This document shows, piece by piece, positions 8,725-48,019 of a DNA stretch of 48,487 nt (positions within the stretch are counted from its first letter, which is position 1; every line of letters starts with the position of its first letter). Source of the DNA: Anaerolineae bacterium (lineage in GTDB: Bacteria; Chloroflexota; Anaerolineae; B4-G1; DUEL01); NCBI GenBank assembly GCA_041082215.1, contig JBDOIF010000047.1:62001-110487 (forward strand), given 5' to 3'. A program made the translations under genes and the position numbers. Below the pieces are notes generated by a model, which was not told the origin of the DNA, did no database searches, and saw only the letters and a list, made by a program, of their open reading frames with translations.

Positions 8725-8730
8725 CCTGAG

Positions 8731-16247: not shown

Positions 16248-16346
16248 CCACAGAGACATGGGGGGCACAGAGAAGTATCAGGAGACCTCACACTCTCCAT
16301 GGAGCTCTGTGTTCTCCGCGTCTCCCTTGCCCCGCGTCCCCGCGTC
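16248..16346. repeat. Periodic imperfect inverted repeat
   Basis: ccacagagacatggggggcacagag ... ctctgtgttctccgcgtctcccttgccccgcgtccccgcg. Confidence 0.7.
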
Positions 16347-21023: not shown

Positions 21024-21044
21024 GGCTTTCTGTATGTGCGCTTC

Positions 21045-21078
21045 AGGCCGGGGGAGCCTGGAAGGGCTCCTCCGGCCT
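21045..21078 (+). other. Intercistronic hairpin after the binding-protein gene (mRNA stabiliser or partial terminator)
   Basis: aggccgggggagcc-tggaag-ggctcctccggcct; no U tract. Confidence 0.6.
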
Positions 21079-21121
21079 ACCTCAAGTTCATTAACAGAAC
21101 TTACGCAGTTTAATCTTTTCT

Positions 21122-21205
21122 CACCGCGGAGGCAAGGAGAACACAGATTTTTATAGATGATGGGGTTTTCTCGAAGTTTCTCTGTGCCCTCTGCATCTCT
21201 GTGGT
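21122..21205. repeat. Periodic imperfect inverted repeat
   Basis: caccgcggaggcaaggagaacacaga ... ctctgtgccctctgcatctctgtggt. Confidence 0.75.
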
Positions 21206-21254
21206 CTTTCACCTGTCGCCGGTGCGTAGCTCCTGTCGTTAAGGGGAAACAGGC

Positions 21255-22559: not shown

Positions 22560-22569
22560 GGAGGCGAAC

Positions 22570-24650: not shown

Positions 24651-24668
24651 TGGGGGAGGGAAGAGAGA

Positions 24669-25450: not shown

Positions 25451-25490
25451 CGGCGGGGGGAGGCGGCGGAACTGCCTCCCCCGTTGTTTT
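25451..25490 (+). terminator. Probable intrinsic terminator after livF
   Basis: GC-rich stem gggggaggcgg/ctgcctccccc followed by gttgtttt. Confidence 0.55.
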
Positions 25491-25503
25491 GGGGAGGTGG
25501 GGG

Positions 25504-28500
25504 ATGCGGCTGTTCGCCCGTTTCTTTCTGCTTGCCGTTCTGGCACTGATGGTCCTTGCCTCTGGCTCGGCGACGGTGAGGGGGGTAGCCCCGTCGGAAA
25601 GCCGGCCCTCTCCGGCGCTCTTCCCGGCCTGGGCTCTGCCGCAGCCTTCTGCCCCTCCGCCCCCCGGTGTGCTCGAGCCGGCGCTGGCGCGGGCGCTGGC
25701 CGCGGCCCGCCCCGACGAGGAGCTGCGGGTCATCGTCATCCTGCGCCCGCAGCTTGCCCCCGAGCCGACCGTCTCCGGTGCTGCCAGCCCCCTTGAGGCC
25801 CGCGCCCGCCTCGTGGCCGCCCTCCAGTCTGTGGCGGAGCATTCCCAGGCTCCCCTGCGGGCCTATCTGGAGGGAGGACGGGCCGCAGGCACCGTCCACT
25901 CCTACACTCCCTTCTGGATCTTCAACGGCCTGGCCGTCCACGCCCTTCCTTCGGCTATCCGCGCCCTCGCCGCCCATCCCGCCGTCGCCTCCATCCGGCT
26001 CGACCACTACCGCCAGTGGCTCCCCCAGCAGCAGTCCTCGATTGCCCGCTATTCGTCATCCGTTATTCGTCATTCGTCATCCGTAACCAGCATCGAGTGG
26101 AACATCTCCCGCATCCGCGCCGATCAGGTCTGGTCTTCTCTGGGGATCTCCGGCACTGGAGTCGTCGTGGCAGGGATGGACACAGGGGTGGACTGGCTTC
26201 ACCCTGCGCTGCACGAAAACTACCGGGGGTACAACGCCCACGGGACCCCCGTCCACACCGGCAACTGGTTCGATGCCGTCGGCGGCACCCTCTACCCGAT
26301 AGACGACCACGGCCACGGTACGCACACGATGGGGACGGCGGTGGGACAGGGGGGGATCGGCGTCGCCCCCGGCGCTCGCTGGATCGGCGTGAAGGTGTTC
26401 AATAGCAGTGGCTACGGCTATGACTCCTGGATTCACGCCGGGTTCCAGTGGCTCCTGGCCCCCGGCGGCGACCCGGCGAAAGCCCCCGACGTGGTTAACT
26501 GCTCCTGGGGAAGTGATGATGGCCTCGACACCACCTTCCGGGACGACCTGCGGGCACTACAGGCGGCGGGGATTTTCCCTGTCTTTGCCAGTGGCAACAG
26601 CGGGCCGGATAGCGGGACAGTGGGGTCGCCGGCCTCCCTGCCGGAGGCCTTCGCCGTCGGCGCGACCGACGAGTACGACGAGGTGGCCTACTTTTCCAGC
26701 CGTGGCCCCTCCCCCTGGGGGGAGATCCGCCCCCACGTCGTCGCCCCCGGCGTCGCCGTCCGCTCCAGCCTGCCCGGCGGCCTCTACGGCAAGATGAACG
26801 GCACCTCGATGGCCACACCCCACGTCTCCGGCATCGTGGCACTCCTCCGCTCGGTCAGCCCCACTCTGACCATCACCCGTACCGCTTACCTCATCACCAG
26901 CACCGCTGTCCCTCTGAGCACCTCTATCCCCAACAACGACTCCGGCTGGGGCCGGGTGGATGCCTTCAACGCCGTCGTCGCCCTGGCCTTTACCGGCCGC
27001 ATCACCGGGACGGTGGCCCGCGCCGACAGCGGCCTCCCCATCGGCGGAGCGACGGTCTCCGCCACTCTGCACGGGGGAACGGGCGGCGGGGCGGCGACGA
27101 CCGACGACGGGGGTGTCTATACCCTCACCCTGGCCCCCGGCCGCTACGACGTCACCGGCTCCGCTTTCGGATACGAACCGGCCACGGTCTGGGGGGTGGA
27201 TGTTGTAACCGGCACGACGATACAGGTCAACTTCTCTCTGGCTTCCCTCCCCGTCGGCACGTTGCGGGGCCAGGTCACCGACGCCGCTACCGGCGACCCG
27301 ATCACCGCCCTTCTTTCTGTGCTGGGTACGCCGGTGGAGGCGGTCACCAGCACCTACTCTTTCGACCTGCCCTCCGGCGCATACACCCTCCGTGCCCGTC
27401 GTCTGGGCTACCGGGTGGTCACCGCAACCGCCGTCGTCACCGCCGGGGAGGTTACCACAGCCGACCTGGCCCTGCCCCCCGCCCCCTCCATCCTGCTGGT
27501 GGATAGCGGAGGCTGGTATCACGAGAGCCAGATCGGGTATTTCCGCCAGGCGCTCGACGATCTGGCCTGCGCCTACGACGAGTGGCCCATCCGCCATCTG
27601 CCCGCCGACCTCCCTGCCTCGTCCGACCTGATCCCCTACGACATCGTCATCTGGTCCGCGCCCCAGGATGCGCCCGGTTACATCGGCGCCGAGGGGGCCA
27701 TCACCGGCTATCTTTCCAGCGGAGGGGGGCTTTTCCTTACCGGGCAGGACATCGGGTATCTGGACGGATGGTGGGGATACGCACCCTATTATTATAGGGA
27801 GTATCTGAAGGTCCATTTGGAGGAGGATAGCTCCGAAGTATGGGAGCTGGACGGAGTGCAGGGCGACCTCTTCGACGGGCTGACCCTCACCATCGCCGGG
27901 CCGGGCGGCGCCGACAATCAGTTCTGGCCGGACGTCGTCGGCATCACCGATCCGGAGGCCGCTGCTCCAGTGCTGGCCTACCGGGGGGATGGGTGGGGTG
28001 GGGTGCGGGTGGGGACCTGCCTGGACTACCGGGCGGTCTACCTCTCCTTCGGCTTTGAGGCCATCAACGAGCGTGCTGCCCGCCGGGAGGTGATGGACCG
28101 GTCGCTGGCGTGGCTGGCGGCCGATCCGCCCACCGTCGGCCTGGAACTGACGCCTGCCGGCCAGACCCGCACCGCCCCCCCGGGGACCACCGTCACCCAC
28201 ACCCTGAAGTTGCGGCACGTCGGGCAGGCCGGGACCGTGGATGCAGCCTCGTTATCCCTGGTGGGGGCCGACTGGGCTACCGAATTGAGTCAGCCTGAGC
28301 TGACCCTTTCCCCCTGCACTTCCGCCACCGTCGTGGTGAGCGTCACCATCCCTATCACGGCGGGCTGGGATGAGCGGGATGTGCTCACCGTGACTGCCCG
28401 TTCCTCCCTTTCGCCGTCCCTCGTCCAGACCGCCGTGCTGACCACCAAGGCCCCCGCCCCGCTCCTGCTGGTGGACGACGACCGCTGGTATGAACAGCGG

Positions 28501-29877
28501 GAGGTGTACCGGTCCGCAGTGGAGGCAGCAGGCCTTCCTTACGACCTGGTGGAGACCTGCCCGGCGGTCGGAGATTGCCTGGGTGGAGATGGGGTCATAG
28601 AGAGATTGTCTCTCTACCCTATGGTGGTCTGGTGGACCGGTTACGACTGGTATGAGCCGGTGACTGAGGAGGAGGAGGCGGCGCTGGCGGCGTATCTGGA
28701 GGAGGGGGGACGGCTGTTCCTCTCCGGTCAGGATTTTCTGTATTATCACGGCCTGGACCCCTTCGGCCGGGACCGGTTGGGGGTATTGACCTACACCGAG
28801 GATGTGGAGGTGGCCCAGGCGACGGGTGTGCCGGAGGACCCGGTCGGCGATGGGTTGGGACCCTGGGTTCTGGATTACCCTTTCACTGCCTGGTCGGACG
28901 AGCTGGAACCCACGCCTGGCACCCGGGTCGTCTTTCGGGAGGAGGAAGGGCAGGGGATCGGGCTGGCCCGGCGGGAGAGGGGGTATGCGACGGCCTTCTT
29001 CTCCTTCCCCTTCGAGGCGTTGCCGAAAGAGGGGCGGCCGCGGACGATGGAGCGGCTGGTGGGCTGGCTTTCCTGGCTGGGTGGCTCCACTTTCTCGGCA
29101 CATAGAGGAGCTATCCCAGCCGGTTCGGTCCTCACCTATACCCTGAGGCTGTGGAACGACGGCCCTGCCCCTGTCTCTGCTTCCATTTCCAACACCCTGC
29201 CGGAGGAGCTGGAGCTGATCCCCTCCAGCCTGACCGGCCCCGACCCGCCGCTCGGAGGTGGCCCGGCGCAGTACGACCCGGCGGCGCGGCGGATCGCCTG
29301 GGAGGGGCCGCTGGGTCCGGGCGTCGAGGTCACCTTCACCTACCAGGTGACCGTGGCGACCGGCCTACCCCCCGGTGCAGTCCTTGTCAACACGGCCCGC
29401 ATCGGGCTGGAGGACCAGGCCATCCATTTCCACCGTTCCGCCGTGGTGCGGGTGGAGGCCCCCGACCTCTCCCCCTCGGCCTTCTGGTTCGAGCCTTCGG
29501 AGGCGCGGCCTGGGGGAGTGGTCACCGGGGTGGTGGTGCTGGCCAACGGTGGCCCGGCGAATGCCACGGCGGTCACAGCTATCCACCCCCTGCCGACGGC
29601 TTCGGACCTGGTTTCCGGTTCCCTGTCCTGGGCGGGTGGAGGAGAGGCGGAGGTGGTGAGCCGCACGCTTCGCTGGGCCGGTCCTCTGCTCGCAGGCGGC
29701 AAGGTGACGGTGGCTTATCAGATCACGCTGCCCACCTATCCCCTTCATCCTCCTCTCCACGGAGTGGTTTTCCTGGAGGATGGGGTGGGGGGCAGGTGGG
29801 AGCGGAGCGCGTGGGTGGTCCTTGAGCCGCGCAGGGTTTACCTGCCGGTGGCGTTGAGAGGCTTCACCAGCCGGTGA
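25504..29877 (+). CDS. Large secreted S8 serine peptidase with carboxypeptidase-regulatory-like, repeated alpha/beta and DUF11-like domains
   Basis: Signal peptide, pro-domain, triad DTG/HGTH/GTSMATP; two LLVD...YL..GG.LFL.GQD modules; C-terminal RVYLPVALR. Confidence 0.88.
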   Translation: MRLFARFFLLAVLALMVLASGSATVRGVAPSESRPSPALFPAWALPQPSAPPPPGVLEPALARALAAARPDEELRVIVILRPQLAPEPTVSGAASPLEARARLVAALQSVAEHSQAPLRAYLEGGRAAGTVHSYTPFWIFNGLAVHALPSAIRALAAHPAVASIRLDHYRQWLPQQQSSIARYSSSVIRHSSSVTSIEWNISRIRADQVWSSLGISGTGVVVAGMDTGVDWLHPALHENYRGYNAHGTPVHTGNWFDAVGGTLYPIDDHGHGTHTMGTAVGQGGIGVAPGARWIGVKVFNSSGYGYDSWIHAGFQWLLAPGGDPAKAPDVVNCSWGSDDGLDTTFRDDLRALQAAGIFPVFASGNSGPDSGTVGSPASLPEAFAVGATDEYDEVAYFSSRGPSPWGEIRPHVVAPGVAVRSSLPGGLYGKMNGTSMATPHVSGIVALLRSVSPTLTITRTAYLITSTAVPLSTSIPNNDSGWGRVDAFNAVVALAFTGRITGTVARADSGLPIGGATVSATLHGGTGGGAATTDDGGVYTLTLAPGRYDVTGSAFGYEPATVWGVDVVTGTTIQVNFSLASLPVGTLRGQVTDAATGDPITALLSVLGTPVEAVTSTYSFDLPSGAYTLRARRLGYRVVTATAVVTAGEVTTADLALPPAPSILLVDSGGWYHESQIGYFRQALDDLACAYDEWPIRHLPADLPASSDLIPYDIVIWSAPQDAPGYIGAEGAITGYLSSGGGLFLTGQDIGYLDGWWGYAPYYYREYLKVHLEEDSSEVWELDGVQGDLFDGLTLTIAGPGGADNQFWPDVVGITDPEAAAPVLAYRGDGWGGVRVGTCLDYRAVYLSFGFEAINERAARREVMDRSLAWLAADPPTVGLELTPAGQTRTAPPGTTVTHTLKLRHVGQAGTVDAASLSLVGADWATELSQPELTLSPCTSATVVVSVTIPITAGWDERDVLTVTARSSLSPSLVQTAVLTTKAPAPLLLVDDDRWYEQREVYRSAVEAAGLPYDLVETCPAVGDCLGGDGVIERLSLYPMVVWWTGYDWYEPVTEEEEAALAAYLEEGGRLFLSGQDFLYYHGLDPFGRDRLGVLTYTEDVEVAQATGVPEDPVGDGLGPWVLDYPFTAWSDELEPTPGTRVVFREEEGQGIGLARRERGYATAFFSFPFEALPKEGRPRTMERLVGWLSWLGGSTFSAHRGAIPAGSVLTYTLRLWNDGPAPVSASISNTLPEELELIPSSLTGPDPPLGGGPAQYDPAARRIAWEGPLGPGVEVTFTYQVTVATGLPPGAVLVNTARIGLEDQAIHFHRSAVVRVEAPDLSPSAFWFEPSEARPGGVVTGVVVLANGGPANATAVTAIHPLPTASDLVSGSLSWAGGGEAEVVSRTLRWAGPLLAGGKVTVAYQITLPTYPLHPPLHGVVFLEDGVGGRWERSAWVVLEPRRVYLPVALRGFTSR
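26042..26083. repeat. Heptamer tandem repeat inside the S8 CDS
   Basis: ttgcccg ctattcg tcatccg ttattcg tcattcg tcatccg (6x7 = 42 bp, frame preserved). Confidence 0.75.
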
Positions 29878-31198
29878 TCAGATAGTCCAGCTCCGCATAG
29901 GCCACCGTGGGATCGGCCTGCAGGCGGGCAAGGGTTGCTTCTTCCTCTCCCCCGGGCACCCATAGCTGCCAGGCCTGGAGAGAGGGGGAGTAGGCCGCCT
30001 CGGTCCCGTAGCGGAGCGCTGCCTGGTTGCCCGCCGTTCCTCCCCGGAAAGCGAGGATGATCCGGCCGGGGGCGTAGGGGGCGGCGGCGGAGGTGGCAGT
30101 GCTTCCCTGTGCCCAGTCGCTGACCCCATCCAGGCAGCGGGGCGATGGTCCCTGAGCTCCCTGGAGCAGGCTCTGATAGGCGTTGATGCGGCCGCAGCCG
30201 GTGTACATATCCCATCCGGGGGAGTCGAGGTCGTCGGCGTTGTCCAGGATCGCCGAAGCGACCTGGTCGGGCGTGTAGGTGGGGTAGCGGGCCCAGACCA
30301 GCGCGGCCAGGCCCGCCACGTGGGGAGTGGCCATCGAAGTGCCGCTTTTGTAGCCGTACCAGCCACCCACCAGTGTGCTGTAGATCGAGGTGCCTGGCGC
30401 GGCAATGCTGACGTGGGAGCCGTAGTTGGAATAGGAGGCGCGGGTGTCGTCTGAGTTTGTGGCGGCGACGCCCAGCACGTGGTTGCAGTTGGCGGGAAAG
30501 TTCGGGGTGTTGCCCTGCATATTGCCGGCGGCTGCTACCAGAAGCACACCCTTCTCGTAGGCATAGTCCACCGCGCTCTGCACATAGGAAGGGCAGGAGG
30601 CTGGCCCACCCAGGCTCATGTTGATCACCTGCGCCCCGTGGTCTGCGGCGTAGCGGATCGCCGCCGCCAGGTCGGATGCGTAACCGGAGCCAGCGGCATC
30701 CAGCACCCGGACAGAGAGGAGGGTCGCCTCCCAACCCAGGCCGGGTATGCCCTCCCCATTGTTTGTGGCCGCGGCGGCGATGCCCGCCACGTGCGTGCCG
30801 TGGCCGTTCTGGTCTTCGGCCACGTCGTCTTCCTCCACAAAGTCCCAATCCTCATCGGTCCTCAGTTTGTCGGCGAGGTCGGGGTGATCCAGGTCTATGC
30901 CGCTATCCAGCACTGCGATGAGGACGGTGGGCCTGCCTCGCGTCAGGCTCCAGGCTTTTGGCGCTTCGATCAGGCTTAACCCCCATTGCTGTTCAAAGTA
31001 GGGGTCGTTGGGATAGACCTCGTAGGTGGCGTCTGCGCTGGGGTTTGCCAGAACCAGCGGGAGGTAGAGGGTATGGGTAGTGACGGGGGCAGCGGGGACC
31101 GGCGCAGCCAGGGCGGGTTCGCTCCGTCCGGCCAGCGCGAGGGCAGACAGGCACAGTGGCATCAGGGCCAGAACGGGGACGATGATCACGCGACGCAT
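29864..31198 (-). CDS. Secreted thermitase-like S8 serine peptidase with C-terminal pro-domain-like segment
   Basis: Signal peptide, LYLPLV, PNDPYF..QW, DSG/HGTH/GTSMATP; C-terminal YAPGRIILAF...DPTVAYAELDY. Confidence 0.9.
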   Translation of the reverse strand: MRRVIIVPVLALMPLCLSALALAGRSEPALAAPVPAAPVTTHTLYLPLVLANPSADATYEVYPNDPYFEQQWGLSLIEAPKAWSLTRGRPTVLIAVLDSGIDLDHPDLADKLRTDEDWDFVEEDDVAEDQNGHGTHVAGIAAAATNNGEGIPGLGWEATLLSVRVLDAAGSGYASDLAAAIRYAADHGAQVINMSLGGPASCPSYVQSAVDYAYEKGVLLVAAAGNMQGNTPNFPANCNHVLGVAATNSDDTRASYSNYGSHVSIAAPGTSIYSTLVGGWYGYKSGTSMATPHVAGLAALVWARYPTYTPDQVASAILDNADDLDSPGWDMYTGCGRINAYQSLLQGAQGPSPRCLDGVSDWAQGSTATSAAAPYAPGRIILAFRGGTAGNQAALRYGTEAAYSPSLQAWQLWVPGGEEEATLARLQADPTVAYAELDYLITGW

Positions 31199-38827: not shown

Positions 38828-39037
38828 CTACAAAGCCCTCACATGGACGGCTTGCAGTCCCTTCGGGGTCTGCTCGACGGAAAACTCCACACGCTGGCCC
38901 TCGCGCAGCGTGCGGAACCCGTCCCCCTCGATCGCCGAGAAGTGGACGAAGACATCGTCCCCGCTCTCCCGAGAGATAAAGCCATACCCCTTGGCATCGC
39001 TGAACCACTTGACGATTCCGGTCTCTCTCTCTTTCAC
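38828..39037 (-). CDS. Cold-shock domain protein
   Basis: [24 protein letters not shown] start. Confidence 0.95.
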
Positions 39038-39166
39038 TTCCTGCTACTCCTTACATTTGGTGATTCTCGGGCGAAGCTACCCCACCGTGGCAAACAAAGA
39101 GCGCCCGGCCTCCGCAAGCCTGGGCGGTTTCTCTACCACAGACAGAACTTGCTTCGTCCCACTCTT

Positions 39167-39206
39167 AGTGTACCACCCTTGCGCTAAAAGGTCAAATCGG
39201 TATAAT
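39167..39206. promoter_or_regulatory. Overlapping divergent sigma70-type promoters (csp leftward, MBL rightward)
   Basis: Minus: TTGACC(39195-90)-17-TACACT(39172-67); plus: TTGCGC(39179-84)-16-TATAAT(39201-06). Confidence 0.65.
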
Positions 39207-39210
39207 CCAC

Positions 39211-39402
39211 AGGTGTATTTCAGCTTGGGGGCGAGATGTCCCTGGCCCGGGCCGGACCTGGGGAAACACGAATGGCGCGAATGGAAACGAATGCCACGAA
39301 TGGAGCAGGTATCCCTCCTGTTCGCTGTATTCGGGCCATTCGCGGGATTTGCGATCCACCGGCGAGCGAGAGGACCACTCGCCCCGAAATTGAAATACGC
39401 CC
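39211..39402 (+). mobile_element. MITE family A, copy 3 (192 bp)
   Basis: Both TIRs; degenerate 8-bp flanks TAATCCAC/TGATCCAT. Confidence 0.9.
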
Positions 39403-39449
39403 TGATCCATGAAGGGGAAAACGGATAAGCGAATGCCAAGGAGGCCCGC

Positions 39450-40073
39450 ATGCTCTTGCGCTCTGTTGTCGTCGGCATCACGCAGACCAACTGTTACGTC
39501 GTCGGCTGTGAGCAGAGCCGGGAAGGGGTGGTGATTGACCCCGGTGGACACCCGGAGCGGGTTCTGCGGGTTGTCCGGGAGATGGGCCTCGCCGTCCGTT
39601 ATGTCCTGAACACCCACTGCCACTTCGATCATATGGCGGCCAACGCCGATGTGGTGGCCGCTACCGGGGCGATGCTGGCCCTCCATCCGGCAGAACTGCC
39701 CATCCTCCAGGCCCGGGGCGGGGCCTCATGGTTCGGCGTGCCGGTGAAGGAAAGCCCCCTTCCGGACCTGGAGCTGGAGGACGGGCAGGCGCTGGAGGTG
39801 GGATCGCTTCGGTTCCAGGTTCTGCACACTCCCGGCCATTCCCCTGGCGGGGTGACGTTCTATCTGGAAGAGGAGGGGGTGGCTTTCGATGGGGACGTGC
39901 TCTTCGCCATGGGGGTAGGCCGCACCGACCTGCCTGGCGGCGATTGGGAGACGCTGATGCGTTCCATTCATGAGGTGCTCTTCGCCCTTCCCGACGACAC
40001 GGCCCTTTACCCCGGCCACGGCCCACAGACGACAGTGGGGCGAGAGAAGCGCTCCAACCCCTGGCTGACGTAG
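39450..40073 (+). CDS. MBL-fold metallo-hydrolase (glyoxalase II/YcbL-like)
   Basis: THCHFDH, TPGHSPG, GDVLF, GRTD, PGHG. Confidence 0.92.
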   Translation: MLLRSVVVGITQTNCYVVGCEQSREGVVIDPGGHPERVLRVVREMGLAVRYVLNTHCHFDHMAANADVVAATGAMLALHPAELPILQARGGASWFGVPVKESPLPDLELEDGQALEVGSLRFQVLHTPGHSPGGVTFYLEEEGVAFDGDVLFAMGVGRTDLPGGDWETLMRSIHEVLFALPDDTALYPGHGPQTTVGREKRSNPWLT

Positions 40074-40093
40074 GGGCAGGACTTGCCCTCTCT

Positions 40094-40912
40094 CTAGGCT
40101 ACCTGCCGCCCGGGGATGGGCGGCCCTCCAGCGTAGACGGCGGTCACTGCCATCCTTCCCGTCGGCGCCCCCAGCAGCCGACGCCCCCCCAGCCAGCGGC
40201 CCTTCGCCTGGAACGACACGATGTCCAGTGTGAGGAGGCAGGCGGCGACGGGGGCACCGACCGGCAGCTCCACCAGCAGCTCCCCATCCGGCCCGCCCGC
40301 ACAGGCCAGCGCCCGCTCCCCAGCCGGCTGGAGGGAGAGGACCGGCGCGATCCGCGGGTAGCCCTCTCCATCCAGAAAGGCCAGCACCCGTACTGCTGTG
40401 ATCGGGCGGAACCCTTCCCGCACCGGCAGCGGCATCTCCACCCCTTCTCCCGGGGGGGCGGGATGGCGGGCGGCCAGCCGGGCCAGCAGATAGTCGGCCA
40501 GGACGCGGAGCCTGGAGAGCCGAAAGTGGCCCGACACCTCCCGCACGGTCACGATCCCGGCGTTGCGGATGCCGGTGTAGGCGTTGTACCGCAGGAGATC
40601 GGTGCTCATAATCCGGTCCACGTAGGGGCCGGTCCGTTGCCAGCCGGCGAAATCCCCTCGCAGCACCCATCCTACCAGGTCGGTGGTCATCACCAGGATG
40701 CCCACCCGCGGGTCGGCGTCGAGGTTCCGCACCGACTTACGCAGCAGGAAGTTGCCGAAGATCAGCCGGTCCTCCACATCTCCTGCCGGCATCAACGAAG
40801 TGCACGGCACCACGTTCGGCACCCCGTCGGGGGAGCGAGTGGCAAGGAATTTGGGGGTCATCTCGTGGGAGAGGGCCTCCAGCAGGCCAGGATAAGATGT
40901 GAGGAGGGACAT
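40094..40912 (-). CDS. Tandem pyridoxamine 5'-phosphate oxidase-like (split-barrel) protein
   Basis: FLATRSPDGVPNVVP..KSVRNLDADPRV and a second degenerate LAFLDGEGYPRIAP; start ATG 40912 with RBS AGGAGG. Confidence 0.7.
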   Translation of the reverse strand: MSLLTSYPGLLEALSHEMTPKFLATRSPDGVPNVVPCTSLMPAGDVEDRLIFGNFLLRKSVRNLDADPRVGILVMTTDLVGWVLRGDFAGWQRTGPYVDRIMSTDLLRYNAYTGIRNAGIVTVREVSGHFRLSRLRVLADYLLARLAARHPAPPGEGVEMPLPVREGFRPITAVRVLAFLDGEGYPRIAPVLSLQPAGERALACAGGPDGELLVELPVGAPVAACLLTLDIVSFQAKGRWLGGRRLLGAPTGRMAVTAVYAGGPPIPGRQVA

Positions 40913-40958
40913 GGTTGCCTCCTGAGATAAGGGTAAAGCGTCAGGCGTCAAACGTCAA

Positions 40959-41873
40959 TCAGCGAGTTGCGCCGGACCAGCGGGCGGTGGCGACCCGCTG
41001 CAGGGCGACGGCGTAGAGGGCTTCCATCTCGGCGCGGGTCAGAAGCGGCGCTCCTTCCAGCGCGTAGGGCCGGTCCAGCCGATGGTACTTGGGCTGGCCC
41101 AGGTTGGTGTAGGCCAGCAGGTCCCACCGCTCCACCGTGGGCAGCTCGGCGGCGATGAAGTCGCCGATGGCGGCGATGTTCGCCTCGTCCGCCGTGTAGC
41201 CGGGGATGACGGGGGTACGGACCCACATCGGCTTGCCCGCCGCGGCCAAGCGTTGCCCGTTCTCCAGAATCAGCCGGTTATCCACGCCGGTGGCTTCCCG
41301 GTGGCGGTCGGCGTCGAAAAGCTTGAGATCGTAGAGGACCAGGTCCACCCACGGCAGGACCCGCTCGTACCGTTCCCAGGTCGCAGCTCCACAGGTGTCC
41401 AGTGCCACGTGGATGCCGGCCTCGTGGCAGAGCCAGGCCAGAACGGCGACGAAGTCGGCCTGTCGCATCGGCTCGCCGCCGGAGAAGGTTACCCCGCCGC
41501 CGGAGGTGTCGTAGAAGATGCGGTCCTTCTCCACCTCAGCGAAGAGCGTCTCCGGCGTCCACTCCCTGCCGATGACCTCCAGCGCCGCGGCCGGGCAGGC
41601 CTGGGCGCAGGCCCCGCAGACGGTGCATCGCTCCCGATCAATGCGCATCCCCTCTGGAGTGAGCTCCAGGGCATCCTCCGGACAGGCGGTGAGGCAATCC
41701 CGGGCGCCGATGCAGCGGACGTCGTACCAGACCAGTTCGGGGTGGGGGGAGATCCCCTCCGGGTTGTGACACCACGCACAGCGGAGGGGGCAGCCCTTGA
41801 AGAAGACGGTCGTGCGGATGCCGGGGCCGTCCTCGGTGCTGAAGCGCTGGATGTTGAAAGTGATGCCGGTCAT
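40959..41873 (-). CDS. Glycyl-radical enzyme activating enzyme (radical SAM with ferredoxin insert)
   Basis: NIQRFSTEDGPGIRTTVFFKGCPLRCAWCHNPE, GGVTFSGGEP; ATG 41873 overlaps upstream stop. Confidence 0.95.
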   Translation of the reverse strand: MTGITFNIQRFSTEDGPGIRTTVFFKGCPLRCAWCHNPEGISPHPELVWYDVRCIGARDCLTACPEDALELTPEGMRIDRERCTVCGACAQACPAAALEVIGREWTPETLFAEVEKDRIFYDTSGGGVTFSGGEPMRQADFVAVLAWLCHEAGIHVALDTCGAATWERYERVLPWVDLVLYDLKLFDADRHREATGVDNRLILENGQRLAAAGKPMWVRTPVIPGYTADEANIAAIGDFIAAELPTVERWDLLAYTNLGQPKYHRLDRPYALEGAPLLTRAEMEALYAVALQRVATARWSGATR

Positions 41874-42145
41874 AGCCTTTGTGTTTTCACGGTCCATCTC
41901 CGCCGGGCCAGCGCAAAAAGGGCGATGCCGACCCAGGCGATGTTGATGCCTACAGAGGGAAAGGCCCGGTAATAGGCGGAGTTCACGATCAGAAGCAGGC
42001 TTCCCAGGGCGTTCAGCGCCTGGTAGAGGGGCGAATCGCCCTCCAGTTTGCGTATGGAGACCAGCGCGTAGGCCACCAGCAGGGCGACGACGCCGCTCCA
42101 GCCCGCGATGTCTATCCAGAGGTTGGGTAGCATATCACTCGCCAT
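41870..42145 (-). CDS. Small three-TM membrane protein (CBU_0592-like)
   Basis: GW.G...LL.AY.L.S, YQALNALGS, NIAW. Confidence 0.75.
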   Translation of the reverse strand: MASDMLPNLWIDIAGWSGVVALLVAYALVSIRKLEGDSPLYQALNALGSLLLIVNSAYYRAFPSVGINIAWVGIALFALARRRWTVKTQRL

Positions 42146-42147
42146 TA

Positions 42148-44553
42148 CTACAGTGCGTGGCTCTCCCGCGCGATGATCTCGTCCTGAATCTCCTTCCCCA
42201 GCATCACGAAGTAGGCGTTGTAGCCGGTGACGCGGACCAGCAGGTTGCGGTAGGCATCGGGGTCCTTCTGGGCCGCCCGCAGCGTCTCCGGGCTGACCAC
42301 ATTGACCTGCAGGCAGGTGCCGCCCACCCTGCCATAGGCCCGCAACAGCGCCGCCAGCTTCCGCCGGTGTTCGGGGTCGCGCAGCATGGCGGGGGAAAAG
42401 CTCATCGTGTGGGAGGCGCCGTTGGGAGCTGTCTCCAGCCCCAGATGGCCTGCACTCCGGATCACAGCGGTCGGCCCCAGCCGGTCCGCCCCGTTGACGG
42501 GGCAGATGCCATTGCTGAGGAACTGGCCCCGCACCCGGCCGTCGGGTGTGGCTCCGGTGGAGGGCGCATAGGCCACCCAGTAGTTCCAGGAGAGGTAGCC
42601 GCCCCGATACCGCTTGCCGGTCTCAGGGGTGGTGTGCCTGAACGCCTCCGTGGTCCAGAACCGACTGATCTCCCGCGCCAGGTCGTCCGCATACGGGTCG
42701 TCGTTGCCGTACTTGGGGGCCTTGTTGAGCAGGGTCTGCCGCAGCGGCTCGTACCCCTGGAAATTGGCGTCCAGTGCCCGCACCAGCTCCTCCATCGTCA
42801 CCGCCCGCTCGTCGTAGACCAGCTTCTTCACTGCCGCCAGGCTGTCGGCGGCGGTGGCCAGGGCCACCCCTTCGACGGTGATGAAATTGTACCGCGCCCC
42901 GCCAGCGGCGATGTCCCTCCCGCTTTCCAGGCAGCCGTCCACCAGCGCGCTGAGGTAGGGGGTTGGCTCGAAGCGGGCCCGGCCAGTGTCGGCGATGTCG
43001 TTGGCCCGGATCAGGAGCTCCAGGGTAGCCTTGAGCTGGGCCTTGAAGGCGTCGAAGAACCGGTCAAAGGTGGAGAAGGTGCGCGGATCGCCGGTGCGGG
43101 GGCCGACCTGCTCGCCGGTAGCCGCGTCCTTCCCATCGTGGAGGGCCAGCTCCACCGCCTTGGCGATGTTCAGATTGACGTCCACCGTGCCGGAGCGGTC
43201 GCATCCCTGGAGGGTGTTCTCCAGGCAGCCCACAGGGGCGTAGTCCCAGAGCTCCTCCTCCGGCAGCCCCTCCCAGCGCAGGCCGGCGATGGAGTTTTCG
43301 TCGAAGTTCAGCAGGAACGGGCTACCCTGGGCGCTGGCGATCATCTCCACCACCCGGTCCAGGAGCCGGTCCGGGGTCCTGGCATGGAGGCGGATGTTGG
43401 GCTTGGGTTCCAGCAGATTCATCTCCTCGATCACGTCCAGGATCAGGTAGGTCAGCTCGTTGCTGGCGTCCTCTCCCTTCTCGTCCATTCCGCCGAGGGT
43501 GATGAGCTGGCCGAAGGAGGAATTGATCCCCTGGTTGGTGCCCACCCAGCCCTGGTAGTCGTAGGCGTAGTTGTGCTTGATCCAGAGGCACTGGAGCCAT
43601 TCCCTGGCCTGATAGGGGGTGAGGCGGCCGGCTTCGACGTCGGCTTTGTAATAGGGGTAGAGGTACTGGTCAATACGGCCGGGGGAGAGGCCGGGGCCGG
43701 GGTAGCTTTCCGCCACCATCGCCAGCATATGGGTGAACCAGAGGGACTGGAGCGCTTCGGGAAAGGTCTCCGCCGGCTCCCAGGGCACCCTGCGGCAGAT
43801 ACGGGCGATCTCGACCAGCTCGGCCCTCCGCCCGGGGTCGTTTTCCTGCCCGGCCAGCCGTTCCGCCTCGTCGGCGTATCGCCCCATCAGCGCCCGAACC
43901 CCGTCGGCACAGATGGAGATAGCGCGGGCCAGGTCCCGCTGCTCCGGCGTGGAGAGAGGATCGGCGGCGATCGCATCCGCTTCCTCTTTGATGGCCCGAA
44001 AGCCGAAACGGAGGACGCGGGGGTAGTTGGGGATGAGGTGGCCAGGGACCGCGCCGCAATTGCCCACGCCCAGCCGGTTCAGCCGCGTCACCTCTTTGAG
44101 GAACCGCCTCTCCATCTGGGCGTACTGGCGGGCCTCGGTGCGGGTGAGGCTGCGGGAGAGAGCGGTGCAGAAGTGGGAGCCGACGATCAGCTCTCCTTCC
44201 AGGATCTGGACCGGCAAATAAGCTTCCAGTACGCGCTGGAAGAAGAGGGCCCGCCGCACCACCAGCGGCTCCTCCCAGAAGCCGGGGGGAAGCTCTACCT
44301 TCGTAGCGTCGGCCAGAAGGTAGGCCTTCGCTCCCTGGAGGAACATCAGCATCTCCGGCACGTTGGTCCAGTTCCAGGGGGCATAGACCTGGTCCCAGGG
44401 GGTGCCGGTGGTGTAGGCGCGGACCTCGTTGGTGTATGCCCGGTTGTAGAAATCCCAGAACTGATCCCGCAGCCGCTGGACGCGGGGGCTGAGGGTATCG
44501 GCGGGGGACCAGAGCTCGGTGGGAGCCGTGATTTCGATCGCTGAGGTAGCCAT
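42148..44553 (-). CDS. Glycyl radical enzyme (PFL2/dehydratase-like), substrate unknown
   Basis: 801 aa from MATSAIE; SPGRIDQYLYPYY, Cys loop PVGCLE, APKYGNDD, ATPDGR, glycyl loop LLVRVTGYNAYF. Confidence 0.95.
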   Translation of the reverse strand: MATSAIEITAPTELWSPADTLSPRVQRLRDQFWDFYNRAYTNEVRAYTTGTPWDQVYAPWNWTNVPEMLMFLQGAKAYLLADATKVELPPGFWEEPLVVRRALFFQRVLEAYLPVQILEGELIVGSHFCTALSRSLTRTEARQYAQMERRFLKEVTRLNRLGVGNCGAVPGHLIPNYPRVLRFGFRAIKEEADAIAADPLSTPEQRDLARAISICADGVRALMGRYADEAERLAGQENDPGRRAELVEIARICRRVPWEPAETFPEALQSLWFTHMLAMVAESYPGPGLSPGRIDQYLYPYYKADVEAGRLTPYQAREWLQCLWIKHNYAYDYQGWVGTNQGINSSFGQLITLGGMDEKGEDASNELTYLILDVIEEMNLLEPKPNIRLHARTPDRLLDRVVEMIASAQGSPFLLNFDENSIAGLRWEGLPEEELWDYAPVGCLENTLQGCDRSGTVDVNLNIAKAVELALHDGKDAATGEQVGPRTGDPRTFSTFDRFFDAFKAQLKATLELLIRANDIADTGRARFEPTPYLSALVDGCLESGRDIAAGGARYNFITVEGVALATAADSLAAVKKLVYDERAVTMEELVRALDANFQGYEPLRQTLLNKAPKYGNDDPYADDLAREISRFWTTEAFRHTTPETGKRYRGGYLSWNYWVAYAPSTGATPDGRVRGQFLSNGICPVNGADRLGPTAVIRSAGHLGLETAPNGASHTMSFSPAMLRDPEHRRKLAALLRAYGRVGGTCLQVNVVSPETLRAAQKDPDAYRNLLVRVTGYNAYFVMLGKEIQDEIIARESHAL

Positions 44554-44554
44554 C

Positions 44555-45394
44555 TTAGGCCTCCTCTCGGCCTGCGGCCTGGCCGCCCGTTGCTCTCCGG
44601 GGCGACCTGGTGAACCGTTGCGGTCCATAGACCAGGATGATGATGACAGCAACAACGGTTGTCACTCCAACCACAAAGATGTAGGAGGATACGAAAGCCC
44701 CTAACTCAAGCAAAACGGAAGCCACTGTATTGGACATAGCGTGGAACACGCTCACGAAGAACAGGCTGTGCGCGGTGTTCAGATATAGCCAGGTGTAGAT
44801 CACCGTCAGGGACAGGCTGAAGAGGATTTCCCCGTACCACGGCAGGCCCCACATCGGCGAAGAGGGGTTCAACATCAGGGGCAGATGCCACAGGCTCCAC
44901 GACAGTCCCATAATCAAGACGATCTGCAGGTCCGTGTACTTTTGCTGGAGACGGGGCAGCGCAAATCCGCGCCAGCCGATCTCTTCCCAGACGTTTGAAA
45001 GCAGCATGGTGACGAATATCGGGAGCAGACTGGCCCACGCGAATCGGCCAAGCGCTGGAAACGGCTGACCGGAGATCGCTCCCAGGCTGAGGGCGATGGC
45101 CGCCACGATAAACCAGAAGCCAAAGGTCAATACAAACCACCAGGGCGAGGCCCGTAATCTGAACAGGGGGCCGAACAGGTTTCGGATGCCGTCCTTCTCC
45201 CGAAGCGCCAGAACCACGACCAGTGCCGCGATCGTCGGCCCCACGCCGCCCAGGAGGTTGAATAACGGACTGTCGAAGGGGAATACGCCGCGCGCGTGCA
45301 GTGCTTGCGGAACCCATCCCAGCCAGGAGAACACAAAGGCCAGGATGTAAAACGCCATCACAGGATGTCGCTTGATCGCGTTTCTGTTGTCCAT
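44555..45394 (-). CDS. CPBP/Abi (type II CAAX) intramembrane protease
   Basis: EEIGWRG, WSLWH, HAMSN; start ATG 45394. Confidence 0.9.
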   Translation of the reverse strand: MDNRNAIKRHPVMAFYILAFVFSWLGWVPQALHARGVFPFDSPLFNLLGGVGPTIAALVVVLALREKDGIRNLFGPLFRLRASPWWFVLTFGFWFIVAAIALSLGAISGQPFPALGRFAWASLLPIFVTMLLSNVWEEIGWRGFALPRLQQKYTDLQIVLIMGLSWSLWHLPLMLNPSSPMWGLPWYGEILFSLSLTVIYTWLYLNTAHSLFFVSVFHAMSNTVASVLLELGAFVSSYIFVVGVTTVVAVIIILVYGPQRFTRSPRRATGGQAAGREEA

Positions 45395-45413
45395 ATAGGC
45401 TCTCCTATTCGGT

Positions 45414-46190
45414 TCAGGCGGCGAACACCCGGTTACGCAAAATGCCGATTCTCTCCACCTCGACCTCGACCACATCCCCCGGATGGAGCGGCCCCACGCC
45501 GGCGGGAGTGCCGGTGAGGAAGAGGTCGCCCGGCTCCAGGGTCATCACCGCCGAGGCATAGGCGATGAGGGCGGCGGGGGAGAAGACCATCTCCGAGGTG
45601 CGCCCGTGCTGGCGGATCTCCCCGTTAACCCGGCATATGACTGCCAGATCGGCCACATCCGCTTCGGAGAGGCCGGTCACCACCCAGGGGCCCACCGGGC
45701 AGAAGGTATCGAACCCCTTGGCGCGGGTCCACTGCCCGTCCCGCCGCTGCAGATCGCGGGCGGTAACGTCATTGGCGCAGGTCACCCCCCACACACACTC
45801 CCAGGCCTCCTCGGGCCGCACGTTCCGGCAGCGGCGGCCGATCACCACCGCCAGCTCCGCCTCGTAGTCCACCTGCGCCGACTGGGGCGGCAGATAGATC
45901 GGCTGGCCGGGGCCGATCACTGCGCTGGGCGGCTTAAAGAATAGGAGTGGTTCGGGAGGGACCTCGGAGCCATGCTCGGCGGCATGGGCGGGATAGTTAC
46001 GGCCCACGCAGAGGATCTTGGTGGGGACGACGGGAGGCAGAAGGGGGAACTCCGCCAGAGACCCCACCTCCTCTCCCAACTCCCAGTCGGAAAAAGGGTT
46101 GCCCCGTAGTTCCCGGACTCCCCCATCGTCGGTCAGGAGGCCCCAGTGCGGGCCATTTCTGCTCCCGTAGCGCACGATCCTGGCTTGCAT
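45414..46190 (-). CDS. Fumarylacetoacetate hydrolase family protein
   Basis: [48 protein letters not shown]; start could be 46232. Confidence 0.92.
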
Positions 46191-46274
46191 TCTGTATCCT
46201 GTCCTCTTCGCTTTGTAGAATACATTGGCCATCCGCTTGGCCCTCACCTCACCCCCTCCCGGTGAGGGCGGATT

Positions 46275-47147
46275 TCACTGCTCCCGGGGCCTGCAGCGCC
46301 TGACGTTAATGCGCTGCCCCATCTCGATCACCCCATCCTCCGCCACAGGGTAGGCCCGCCCGCAGCCTGCGCAGAAGTAGGCCTCCTCCCGGACAGGCAG
46401 GGGGGTGTAGCCGCATGCAGGGCAGCGGAGCACTTCCGGCAGAGGGCGCACGCCGCCGCCCCGGGGTATTCCCACCTTCACCGCCCAGGCCAGGTCGTAA
46501 TCAACCTGCCAGGGCTGAACATTCACCTCTTCCAGGCCCACGCTTTTGAGCAGCGCCTCGAAGGTCAGGCGGGGAAAGGTGCGTCCGGGCAGGAATGGGG
46601 CATCCCGTCCCACCCGGTTGGAGACCAAAAGGACCCCGCCCGGTCGGAGCACCCGTACCAGCTCCCTCAGCACTCCCTTTGGATCGGGCGTGAACTCCAG
46701 TACCTCCAGGCAGGTGACTGCGTCGAAGGAGTCATCCAGGAAGGGCAGGTTGCGTGCGTCCTGCCAGATGAGCGATACCCGGCCAGCGTAAGGGCGGAGC
46801 AGCCGGGCGGCCTGTCCCAGCATCCGTCGGGACAGGTCCACCCCCACCACTCGCCCCCGGAACCGGGGCTGGAAGAGCAGTGCGCGGGGCAATCGCCCGG
46901 TCCCGGTCCCCACGTCCAGCACCAGGGGGGCAGGGATCGCATCCAGGGCCTGGGCCAGCGGGAGGCCCAGGAACCACTGCTCGTAAGCGGCCTCGAACTG
47001 TTTGATTCGCTCATAGGCCGGAGCCGACCAGTCGTAGAGAAGGGCGACGATCCGGGGGCCCAGATAGGTCCCTTCGGCGATGACCAGTTGCCAGTAGGCC
47101 AGCGCCGCCAGCATCAGGAGACCGACCGCCAGGGGAACCCAGCTCAT
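46275..47147 (-). CDS. Class I SAM-dependent methyltransferase with N-terminal TM anchor and C-terminal zinc ribbon
   Basis: LDVGTGTG, VDLS, FDAVTCLE, RVLRPGG; CPAC..CAGC..YPV.DGVI. Confidence 0.85.
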   Translation of the reverse strand: MSWVPLAVGLLMLAALAYWQLVIAEGTYLGPRIVALLYDWSAPAYERIKQFEAAYEQWFLGLPLAQALDAIPAPLVLDVGTGTGRLPRALLFQPRFRGRVVGVDLSRRMLGQAARLLRPYAGRVSLIWQDARNLPFLDDSFDAVTCLEVLEFTPDPKGVLRELVRVLRPGGVLLVSNRVGRDAPFLPGRTFPRLTFEALLKSVGLEEVNVQPWQVDYDLAWAVKVGIPRGGGVRPLPEVLRCPACGYTPLPVREEAYFCAGCGRAYPVAEDGVIEMGQRINVRRCRPREQ

Positions 47148-47149
47148 TT

Positions 47150-48019
47150 CTACAGCGCACAGGCGGTCAGGAGCATACCCGCCGCCAGCCAGATCCAGGC
47201 CCGCCGTGTCCGTCTCCCATCGTCGGCCTGGGCGGAGAGAAGCCACTGGGGGACGAGGAAAAGGGCCAGGAAGGGCACGGCCAGGGGGCGATGCAACAGG
47301 ATAAGGAGAAGGGCCACTGCTGATTGCCCTGTCAGCTCCAGCAGTCGCCTCTGCCCCTTTTCGGTCTGGCTCATCCCCACAGCCGCTATGGAGAAGGCCG
47401 CTGCGACAAGGAGGGAGGAGAGAGTGAGGGGGGCAAAAAGGACGTGGCCCACAAGCCATGGCCACCCCACCCGTATAACCCCGTCCCACCCGGACCTGGG
47501 CGGAGCTTTACCTTTTTCAAGGACCAGAGCCAGTTGCATCATAGCCAGCAGGCCAAGGGTGAGCAGGAGCGGTCCCTGCCCCAGCGCCAGTGCCAGGGCG
47601 GTGGAAAGGAGAAGGCCGGCGGCCACGGTACCCAGGGCGCGCCCCGCCATCGGTGAAAGAACCCCCTGGCCCCATGCCCGTAGCTGGGCCAGCCAGCGGG
47701 CGATCCGTTCGGCGGGGGAGCCGGGGCGGGAGTAGGGTGGAAGGAGGGAGAGGGGAACCTCGCCCAGATACCAGTTACGCCACCGTCGGATGGGGGCAGC
47801 CCAATCGGTCGTCGCCAGGGCCTCCCACACCGCTCCCCATCCCGCCTCTACCAGCAGGAGGGCCAGGAGCAGCCGGACGGCTCCCTCCGGTGTGGCAGCA
47901 GGCATCCCGGAGGCAATGGCACCGCAGGCCGTTGCCCAGGCGGGGAGGAGCCAGGCCAGAAGGCTGCCCCCACGGAGGCGGAGTCGGATCAACCCACCGC
48001 TACGCAGTTCGGAGGTCAC
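47150..48019 (-). CDS. Polytopic membrane protein of unknown function, probably leaderless
   Basis: Multiple TM segments; GTG 48019 lies 6 nt after TGGTATAAT; upstream ORF extension is MITE DNA. Confidence 0.6.
   Translation of the reverse strand: MTSELRSGGLIRLRLRGGSLLAWLLPAWATACGAIASGMPAATPEGAVRLLLALLLVEAGWGAVWEALATTDWAAPIRRWRNWYLGEVPLSLLPPYSRPGSPAERIARWLAQLRAWGQGVLSPMAGRALGTVAAGLLLSTALALALGQGPLLLTLGLLAMMQLALVLEKGKAPPRSGWDGVIRVGWPWLVGHVLFAPLTLSSLLVAAAFSIAAVGMSQTEKGQRRLLELTGQSAVALLLILLHRPLAVPFLALFLVPQWLLSAQADDGRRTRRAWIWLAAGMLLTACAL

Follow-up and report, generated by a model that had tools for sequence, protein, structure and literature searches.

The window considered here is a 48,487-nt stretch of a hot-spring Anaerolineae genome (96% complete), and our subject is a run of genes on its minus strand encoding a glycyl radical enzyme (GRE), a small membrane protein, a radical S-adenosylmethionine (SAM) activase and a tandem split-barrel protein of the PNPOx-like type, the latter referred to below as the partner. 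A preliminary description had presented these four genes as a tightly coupled run, and all four are indeed present with tight spacing. Gene integrity, family membership and distinctness from the characterised classes, as assessed from the sequence, indicate a functional family of Cys-x-Glu (CXE) GREs that is as yet uncharacterised. The partner accompanies this GRE family specifically and is co-inherited with it. The genes and features on which the analysis relies are listed here.

42148-44553, minus strand: GRE, 801 aa, with matches to PF02901 and PF01228.
44038-44064, minus strand: family-specific GRE loop GNCGAVPGH, its last residue being His172; from the alignment to glycerol dehydratase (GD) and HypD.
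43219-43233, minus strand: Cys loop VGCLE of the GRE (residues 441-445; Cys443, Glu445); translation checked, alignment to GD and HypD.
42220-42234, minus strand: glycyl radical loop RVTGY of the GRE (residues 774-778; Gly777), inside the PF01228 match; translation checked.
41870-42145, minus strand: small membrane protein of the CBU_0592 family, 91 aa, NF047864; a clade-specific insert outside the conserved core.
40959-41897, minus strand: GRE-activating radical SAM enzyme, 312 aa, TIGR02494; alternative start Met9 at 41873.
41769-41792, minus strand: activase motif CPLRCAWC; translation checked.
40094-40912, minus strand: tandem split-barrel (PNPOx-like) partner, 272 aa; AGGAGG before ATG 40912, two-barrel model, Foldseek matches, co-occurrence with the GRE.
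40577-40591, minus strand: RYNAY loop of the partner, the family hallmark; conserved in both clades.
40097-40135, minus strand: C-terminal tail of the partner, YAGGPPIPGRQVA, with conserved Y260, P264, P265 and G268.
44555-45475, minus strand: gene of an Rce1-like CPBP intramembrane protease, PF02517 at 7.7e-14; outside the conserved unit.

The stop codon of the GRE gene is followed, after 2 nt, by the ATG of the membrane-protein gene, the latter overlaps the activase gene, and the gap between the activase and the partner is 46 nt. Two starts are available for the activase, one yielding a 28-nt overlap with the membrane-protein gene, the other, Met9, situated in an ATGA overlap with the stop codon of that gene. 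The partner had been described as starting at TTG 40951 (an open reading frame, ORF, of 285 aa), which is too long. Since AGGAGG is located 6 nt upstream of ATG 40912, and the homologues are about 272 aa in length and cover 95% of the longer ORF, we assign the start to ATG 40912. The third-position GC content of the GRE, activase and partner genes is 0.85-0.88, like that of other genes in the window. The locus is more than a chance arrangement, since the order GRE-activase-partner is encountered again in dozens of genomes belonging to several phyla.

The GRE matches the Pfam domains PF02901 (4e-148) and PF01228 (2.2e-26). The Cys loop and the glycyl radical loop reported earlier were found in the translation as described, and both VGCLE and RVTGY are invariant in all 18 aligned family members. 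These 18 orthologues, from loci labelled as Chloroflexota, delta-proteobacteria/Thermodesulfobacteriota, Riflebacteria, Nitrospiraceae and Hydrogenedentes, share 61-88% identity with the window GRE along its entire length, including the N-terminus. The AlphaFold2 model of the GRE has a mean pLDDT of 77 and pTM of 0.84. Its top Foldseek match is HypD (6vxc), and it is about equally close to all solved CXE-type GREs (TM-score 0.64-0.73 at 24-30% identity, full length). The best sequence matches in the PDB, with similar scores, are CutC, GD, HypD, HpsG and the A. fulgidus PFL2.

The NCBIfam GRE models align only residues ~166-801, and the protein falls below every equivalog cut-off. The best-scoring equivalog is HypD (NF043068), with 486.7 bits against the cut-off of 1100. 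The scores of the other models are 466 bits for HpsG (NF048011, cut-off 1000), 418.5 for CutC (TIGR04394, cut-off 1050), 326 for indoleacetate decarboxylase (cut-off 1100), 288 for 4-hydroxyphenylacetate decarboxylase (HPAD; NF033715, cut-off 1150) and 97 for pyruvate formate-lyase (PFL; TIGR01255, cut-off 994). The model of the PFL2 subfamily, TIGR01774, which spans residues 166-801 only, yields 537.2 bits against 678.2; the equivalent of His164 is present (H172). NF043068 does recognise the enzymes of this organism, since a second GRE encoded in the same genome, on contig C18 (L001:1084-3450), scores 1341.5 bits against 1100 and provides an internal control; this paralogue is a bona fide HypD. 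The C18 HypD gene is flanked by an FGGY-type kinase gene and has no activase gene beside it.

Several known classes were considered and rejected. PFL has adjacent Cys-Cys instead of the single Cys of VGCLE, and its model score is about a tenth of the cut-off. CutC was rejected based on the score. X-succinate synthases and HPAD have small Fe-S (HiPIP-like) subunits encoded with the GRE; the run contains no small ORF other than that of the Cys-free 91-aa membrane protein, and the HPAD model score is far below its cut-off. HypD and the sulfonate C-S lyases (IslA, IseG, HpsG) were rejected because of their scores and of the residues discussed in the next paragraph, and for HypD also because the true enzyme is encoded elsewhere in the genome. 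No bacterial microcompartment (BMC) domain was found among the 33 window ORFs scanned against Pfam. The earlier placement of this GRE outside the characterised classes thus stands, as the equivalog cut-offs are missed, six of nine HypD residues and all three sulfonate-binding residues are replaced, and the model is equidistant from the solved CXE-type GREs.

The active-site residues were mapped by hand from HMMER profile alignments. Cys443 and Glu445 align to GD Cys433/Glu435 and HypD Cys434/Glu436, and the triplet C443-L444-E445 aligns to the CXE motif of GD, HypD, CutC and HpsG. His172 aligns to GD His164 and HypD His160. In the loop that it closes, G162, G164, N165, C166, A168, P170, G171 and H172 are invariant in all 18 aligned members, and Cys166 may have a functional role. 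An excerpt of the HypD study (PMC7077986) names His160, Asp278, Ser334, Asp339, Phe340, Cys434, Glu436, Tyr450 and Thr645 as substrate or catalytic residues. Out of these nine, three are kept (H172, C443, E445), and the remaining six are replaced: Asp278 by P287, Ser334 by N344, Asp339 by Q349, Phe340 by L350, Tyr450 by N460 and Thr645 by W656. The sulfonate anchor triad of HpsG, given as R183, Q187 and R672 in excerpts of a 2026 review of GREs (PMC13450708), corresponds to A168, H172 and G652, so that none of the three residues is retained. Most of the replacing residues are themselves invariant within the family.

According to the same excerpts (PMC13450708), the CXE motif is kept by all GRE eliminases and isomerases, and its Glu forms a hydrogen bond with the substrate hydroxyl; hence we propose hydroxyl-directed elimination or isomerisation. 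The motif had initially been read as a sign of elimination or decarboxylation. The former survives, as this is the motif of eliminases and isomerases, whereas the latter has no specific support in the review excerpts. Most of the pocket residues are of the uncharged polar or aromatic kind (N344, Q349, L350, N460, G652, W656), so the substrate may be neutral, hydroxylated and perhaps bulky. It is presumably not one of the known GRE substrates.

Among the known enzymes, GD (C. butyricum, 1r8w) and 1,2-propanediol dehydratase (PD; 5i2g, 9rco) share with the window GRE the ten-stranded fold (TM-score ~0.70, full length), the CXE Cys loop, the His164 equivalent, the RVxGY Gly loop and an activase with a ferredoxin-like insert. 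However, the identity is 28-29% in the structural alignment, the TIGR01774 score is 537 against 678, and the GD loop with His281/Ser282 reads YPGPGVS in the window GRE. Moreover, GD and PD have no split-barrel partner. HypD of C. difficile (6vxc) has His160, Cys434 and Glu436 in common with the window GRE and differs in the six other residues. IslA, IseG and HpsG (7kq3, 5ymr, 6lon) share the fold and the CXE motif, and it is their Arg/Gln/Arg triad that is replaced.

These likenesses bear on the possibility that the GRE is a divergent member of a characterised class, e.g. a thermophilic hydroxyproline or diol dehydratase, and that the partner is an incidental neighbour. Among the equivalogs, HypD gives the highest score for the GRE (487 bits) and the HypD activase that for the activase (326 bits vs 425), and His172, Cys443 and Glu445 are common to GD and HypD. 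Further, some loci contain peptidase (C69-like, M24) and aminotransferase genes. However, the equivalog scores of the GRE fall short of the cut-offs by a factor of two or more; six of nine HypD residues and three of three sulfonate residues are replaced by residues invariant in the family; a bona fide HypD is already present in the genome; and the neighbour is not incidental, being found in all 37 genomes with the GRE family (see below). We therefore consider this explanation very improbable.

The relatives of the partner were collected by a pattern scan with one genome per species, which yielded 86 confirmed ones; 80 loci were kept and analysed by tblastn with the window proteins, a GRE orthologue being defined by at least 55% identity. 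Over all 80 loci, a GRE orthologue was found in 58 (at 61-88% identity), an activase in 66, and both in 55. For the 52 full-flank loci, in which 6 kb or more of sequence precedes the partner, the respective numbers are 47, 47 and 44. In 57 of the 58 loci with a GRE, it is situated upstream of the partner and on the same strand. Nine loci lack both the GRE and the activase, and in each of these the partner is within 2 kb of a contig end. The full-flank loci without the activase are five in number (L019, L056, L075, L077, L078).

In addition, 301 genomes of the class were searched with the GRE and the partner; related genomes are not independent, hence no statistic is given. The GRE family was observed in 37 genomes, in 32 of them as full-length proteins at 68-100% identity and in five at 49-51%. 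The remaining GRE matches have at most 44% identity and are aligned only from approximately residue 170. All 37 genomes with the GRE family have the partner, and 261 genomes have neither. In the three genomes with the partner and no GRE (G072, G142, G155; 88%, 64% and 93% complete), the partner is partial or is located on a short contig. The GRE and the partner share a contig in 31 of the 37 genomes, with the starts 1.75-6.6 kb apart. Out of 66 genomes having only other GREs (at most 44% identity), the partner is present in one, which is 64% complete. The five genomes at 49-51% identity form a sister clade with more distant versions of all three proteins (tblastn identity 46-49% for the GRE, 47-54% for the activase and 24-30% for the partner), and the order GRE-activase-partner is retained in four of them. 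Co-occurrence of the PNPOx-like gene with the GRE, on which the preliminary description depended, is thus borne out both by the full-flank loci (47 of 52) and by the genomes with the GRE family (37 of 37).

The AlphaFold2 model of the partner (pLDDT 82, pTM 0.84) features two split beta-barrels, with a helix and a linker connecting them, in agreement with the two-domain PNPOx-like architecture assigned to it before. At E <= 0.001, Foldseek retrieved 62 PDB matches, with split barrels that bind flavin mononucleotide (FMN), F420 or heme at the top (probability 1.0). Single barrels of the partner superpose on proteins of ~120-145 aa (E from 1e-6 to 1e-5, target-normalised TM-score 0.66-0.79), in particular, HupZ (7kq2, E 1.3e-6, target-normalised TM-score 0.78), Swol_0183 (3in6), the FMN-binding protein of D. 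vulgaris and the F420 reductase MSMEG_3380. Whole-length matches to PilZ/YcgR proteins were disregarded, as their rmsd is ~15-19 Å. The ESM Atlas yielded only generic 'PNPOx family' clusters. The C-terminal half has no Pfam match even at E <= 10.

The sequence alignment of twelve partners from both clades reveals invariant L23, A24, T25, G30 and P32 in the first strands, the RYNAYxG loop (residues 108-114) with invariant R108, Y109, N110, A111, Y112 and G114, and Y260, P264 and P265 in the tail. The wider alignment contains 118 sequences, that is, 117 of the best 150 representatives (250-305 aa) and the window protein. Here R108, Y109, N110 and Y112 each occur in 89% or more of the sequences, P265 in 97%, G268 in 87% and P264 in 86%. 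In the model, the RYNAY loop has low confidence, and the pLDDT of the C-terminal tail is below 50. The family comprises 898, 344 and 168 clusters at 50% identity for E <= 1e-3, 1e-10 and 1e-30, respectively. No fusions were found among the best 150 of the 344 clusters (E <= 1e-10), all of them being 101-337 aa in length; a search for longer forms also gave none at E <= 1e-10, which is weak evidence.

The preliminary description had suggested that the partner may handle either a flavin/F420 cofactor or the product. F420 is unlikely in this genome, because neither CofE (TIGR01916) nor CofG (TIGR03550) was found in the 96%-complete assembly, while the search did detect the archaeal control genomes. 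Further, the score of the partner by the model of F420-dependent split barrels, TIGR03618, is 23.2 bits against the cut-off of 79.

We propose the following mechanism. The adjacent radical SAM activase would place a radical on Gly777, from which it would move to Cys443. The Cys443 thiyl would then abstract a hydrogen beside a substrate hydroxyl held by Glu445 and His172, and the neighbouring leaving group would be eliminated, or a ring opened, as in the reactions of known GRE 1,2-eliminases and isomerases. The partner would be a fused pseudo-dimer of two split barrels of the FMN-binding type. It most likely has one cofactor site, to which the N-barrel (the better conserved of the two), the RYNAY loop and the PPxPG tail at the C-terminus would contribute; a single site is proposed because only the N-terminal half matches PF01243. 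The partner most likely binds FMN, and it would either reduce or oxidise a reactive product or pass electrons into the GRE cycle. The reaction type, the cofactor and the role of the partner are what we infer from these data. Taken together, the reading in which an uncharacterised CXE GRE family performs hydroxyl-directed elimination or isomerisation, and an FMN-type partner takes part in family-specific redox chemistry, is on balance probable.

A bolder version makes the partner an obligatory flavin subunit that feeds or withdraws electrons in the GRE cycle, with net redox chemistry such as reductive dehydroxylation or deamination. This we regard as rather doubtful. If true, the GRE would need an external redox partner for turnover without being a ribonucleotide reductase, and the partner would define a new class of accessory subunits.

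Several observations weigh against the favoured combination of a CXE eliminase or isomerase with an FMN-type partner. The substrate, the cofactor and the complex of the GRE with the partner are all predictions. The GRE model is of moderate quality, with poor confidence for several loops of the active site and for residues 776-801 of the Gly domain; the description of the pocket comes from HMMER alignments and not from a structure. The N-terminal half of the partner passes the PF01243 cut-off by a small margin (29.1 bits vs 28.1), and the search of the PDB by sequence, with both the single sequence and a profile, yielded no real match, so it is the fold from which cofactor binding is deduced. 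Moreover, no NAD(P)H module is recognisable in the partner. In five of the 52 full-flank loci (L005, L009, L019, L056, L058) the GRE is absent within 8 kb of the partner; at that, L005 has a different GRE (40% identity) nearby, and its orthologue would be on another contig if this locus belongs to genome G286, as the coordinates suggest. The gap between the activase and the partner is less than 250 nt in 45 of 66 loci, compared to 25 of 55 for the GRE and the activase, inserts being mostly situated between the latter two. This tighter link fits a helper of the activase as well as, or better than, a helper of the GRE. Finally, in L075, L077 and L078 the partner directly follows the GRE, and the only activase above the cut-off is on another contig, yet these genomes are close kin and hence represent one or two events.

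The complex of GRE residues 75-801 with the full partner was also modelled. The ipSAE values are 0.00 and 0.01 relative to the mark of 0.32, which speaks neither for nor against binding, and the model contains no flavin.

The partner could also be a non-redox subunit or regulator of the GRE. In this case its role would resemble that of the small subunits of benzylsuccinate synthase (BSS) or HPAD. The RYNAY loop and the tail would dock onto the GRE and control its activation, the access of the substrate or the stability of the radical, the barrel being a flavin-free scaffold. Accessory subunits of unclear role do exist in HPAD, BSS and (1-methylalkyl)succinate synthase (MASS), according to the review excerpts (PMC13450708). 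The two most conserved segments of the partner are those modelled least confidently in the isolated protein, which is typical of ordering on binding. The C-barrel lacks any Pfam signal and the N-barrel has a borderline one, and between the two clades the partner diverges faster than the GRE while keeping its position. Nevertheless, the N-barrel retains positions 16-71 of the PNPOx_N profile, which presumably hold the phosphate-binding segment. In dimers of FMN-binding split barrels, each chain extends its C-terminus to the flavin bound by its counterpart. Such a flavin-reaching C-terminus would explain the conserved tail with no need for GRE binding, and the Foldseek matches include L122 mutants of the D. 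vulgaris protein. The GRE accessory subunits named in the review excerpts (PMC13450708) are HiPIP-like or rubredoxin-like, none with the split-barrel fold. Hence we consider a flavin-free scaffold improbable.

The activase itself is well defined, scoring 339 bits with TIGR02494 (cut-off 174). Its CX3CX2C motif is formed by C36, C40 and C43, and it contains Fer4 domains and further Cys residues for auxiliary clusters. The best equivalog is the HypD activase model, 326 bits against 425. In the 96%-complete genome this is the sole TIGR02494 match at E <= 1e-20, compared to two GREs, and thus a single activase may serve both the window GRE and the C18 HypD.

GRE activases need a one-electron donor, the one for the activase of E. 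coli PFL (PFL-AE) being flavodoxin, as stated in the review excerpts (PMC13450708). The partner might then be a dedicated low-potential electron donor, a substitute for flavodoxin that reduces the activase [4Fe-4S] cluster for SAM cleavage and has no part in the substrate chemistry. This would agree with the activase and partner genes being the most tightly linked, as many of the 45 short gaps are as short as 15-50 nt, and with the partner being small, with no evident substrate or NAD(P)H domain. Its nearest folds include the small FMN-binding protein of D. vulgaris, a presumed electron carrier. On the other hand, the partner tracks this GRE family and not the activases in general, since it is found in one of the 66 genomes with other GREs. 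In the three related genomes mentioned above it stays by the GRE with the activase on another contig. One activase is available for two GREs in the window genome, and one of these is a HypD, whose family needs no such partner. Flavodoxin_1 domains are present elsewhere in the genome, and the conserved RYNAY and PPxPG motifs would resemble an active site or a fixed interface more than the surface of a carrier. We consider an electron donor to the activase unlikely, though worth keeping in view. A family-specific chemical role for the partner is ranked above a generic role in activation as the most likely one, although not by much, because the partner is tied to this GRE family, because of its adjacency to the GRE in L075, L077 and L078, and because one activase stands against two GREs.

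Other GREs with additional proteins provide a different picture. BSS, MASS and HPAD require extra small proteins of unclear role encoded in the same operon, which are HiPIP-like [4Fe-4S] or rubredoxin-like in the review excerpts (PMC13450708), whereas the window partner is a 272-aa tandem split barrel; the window GRE is also nearer to the eliminases than to these enzymes. The excerpts name accessory subunits of the HiPIP or rubredoxin type only, and contain no flavin partner; the term 'FMN' is absent from the review, and its three mentions of 'flavin', two of them in the excerpts, concern FMO. On the structural side, the FMN-binding protein of D. vulgaris (2e83), Swol_0183 (3in6), HupZ (7kq2, 5esc) and MSMEG_3380 (3f7e) are single-barrel chains. 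The partner, unlike them, combines two barrels in one fused chain; its C-barrel is asymmetric and degenerate, and the chain carries RYNAY and PPxPG motifs of its own. We know of no single-barrel FMN, F420 or heme split-barrel protein acting as a GRE partner.

In the open full-text literature, to which the search was confined (subscription-only papers being outside its scope), no description of the pairing of a GRE with a flavin or split-barrel protein was found, the sole parallel being LssP. The latter is a putative PNPOx-type protein from the limonenylsuccinate synthase operon; according to excerpts of PMC12583861, its expression was detected and its role is unclear. However, the GRE of that operon is an X-succinate synthase with small subunits, and LssP is likened to the partner by annotation only. 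The statement of the preliminary description that no characterised GRE has a partner of this kind is therefore in line with the literature searched and with the review excerpts (PMC13450708), where the only subunits named are Fe-S or rubredoxin-like. The GRE superfamily itself is known; what is new is a GRE family with a conserved type of partner not described for GREs in the literature searched.

The small membrane protein scores 52.6 bits with NF047864 (cut-off 25). Its hydropathy scan features two strong hydrophobic segments and a weaker one in the middle. The gene is present in the run as first described, but it does not belong to the conserved unit, being found in five of 80 loci (L011, L016, L022, L024, L027). 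It is a local, clade-specific addition.

At the other end, the stop codon of the CPBP gene is situated 1 nt before the GRE ATG, and the Shine-Dalgarno sequence of the GRE is inside the CPBP 3' end. The run may extend upstream, with the CPBP gene co-transcribed. The third-position GC content of this gene is 0.74, below the 0.85-0.88 of the GRE genes, and it has no match in the 80 partner loci; L049 has a different Rce1-like gene between the GRE and the activase. A scan of positions 39400-47800 for promoters and terminators gave two promoter-like sites with 1.0 expected and eight terminator-like ones with 3.8 expected, none of them usable.

The neighbours were examined by all-against-all clustering of ORFs from 85 loci, which is noisy, as the core genes give rise to large clusters of alternative frames, and which revealed no further universal partner gene. 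The commonest insert within the operon, in 11 of the 85 loci, is a gene of a Peptidase_C69-like protein (Ntn-hydrolase type, ~466 aa) between the GRE and the activase (L004:5451-6878, L007:4596-6017, L025:3363-4730 and eight more loci). An AMP-binding gene of the acyl-CoA-ligase type is located on the opposite strand just up- or downstream of the trio in 10 loci (L054:1789-3483, L062:1339-3192, L060:10582-12282 and seven more). Components of ABC transporters occur in 13 loci at scattered positions. The other variable inserts and neighbours are adenosine deaminase, nucleoside-phosphorylase family proteins, class-III aminotransferases, M24 peptidases, nitroreductase-type, SCP2 and Rce1-like proteins, and protein kinases. 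A nitroreductase-family (FMN enzyme) gene fused to Fer4 domains lies inside the trio in L011 (5633-6781), and another one, L056:7333-7902, adjoins a stand-alone partner gene. Since none of these genes is near universal, they provide weak hints only: the GRE substrate may be derived from a peptide or an amide, with the C69-like gene possibly hinting at an amide-linked precursor.

Near-identical DNA was observed in at least 12 runs, from five studies, labelled as hot springs metagenome, and one of these runs is possibly the source of this DNA. In the run X8, labelled as a metatranscriptome, short low-depth contigs map to the activase (40872-41105, 41273-41560) and to the CPBP/GRE junction (44509-44673). 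None covers most of the GRE or the partner, except for a depth bin at ~40435-40721 with loose ends. Such libraries can contain DNA, and contigs cannot show transcription. In the DNA run X2, the summed contig depth at window positions 39000-39573 is ~2000 and 730 in two bins, compared to ~15-40 elsewhere, and loose ends and joints cluster at 39209-39403, where neither a tRNA nor a direct repeat was found. This segment may be common to other organisms, or a repeat.

Elsewhere in the window, positions 13297-16251 encode a molybdoenzyme of the xanthine-dehydrogenase family with fused 2Fe-2S domains, adjoined by a gene with the C-terminal domain of the CO-dehydrogenase flavoprotein (16345-16983); a radical SAM gene (11636-12652) is nearby. 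A branched-chain amino-acid ABC transporter operon (19878-25382) precedes two subtilase genes situated face to face at 25489-31198, one of which encodes a 1462-aa protein with CarboxypepD_reg and DUF11 domains. The subtilases and the amino-acid transporter are consistent with a protein-degrading lifestyle. At positions 6001-8800 the GC content falls to 0.56, and the ORFs 6870-7472 and 8225-8734 have the third-position GC content of 0.51-0.57, compared to ~0.8 elsewhere.

GREs catalyse demanding reactions under anaerobic conditions, and the assignment of each new family has led to a metabolic pathway, e.g. that from choline to trimethylamine, or those of hydroxyproline, sulfonates and anhydro-sugars. 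The family considered here is usually annotated as pyruvate formate-lyase or as a PFL2-family enzyme. It is highly conserved (61-88% identity across phyla) and widely distributed among uncultured fermenters living in sediments, peat, groundwater and hot springs. The pairing of the GRE with the split-barrel protein is an experimental handle, and its resolution would uncover either an anaerobic reaction not seen before or a novel means of supporting a GRE.

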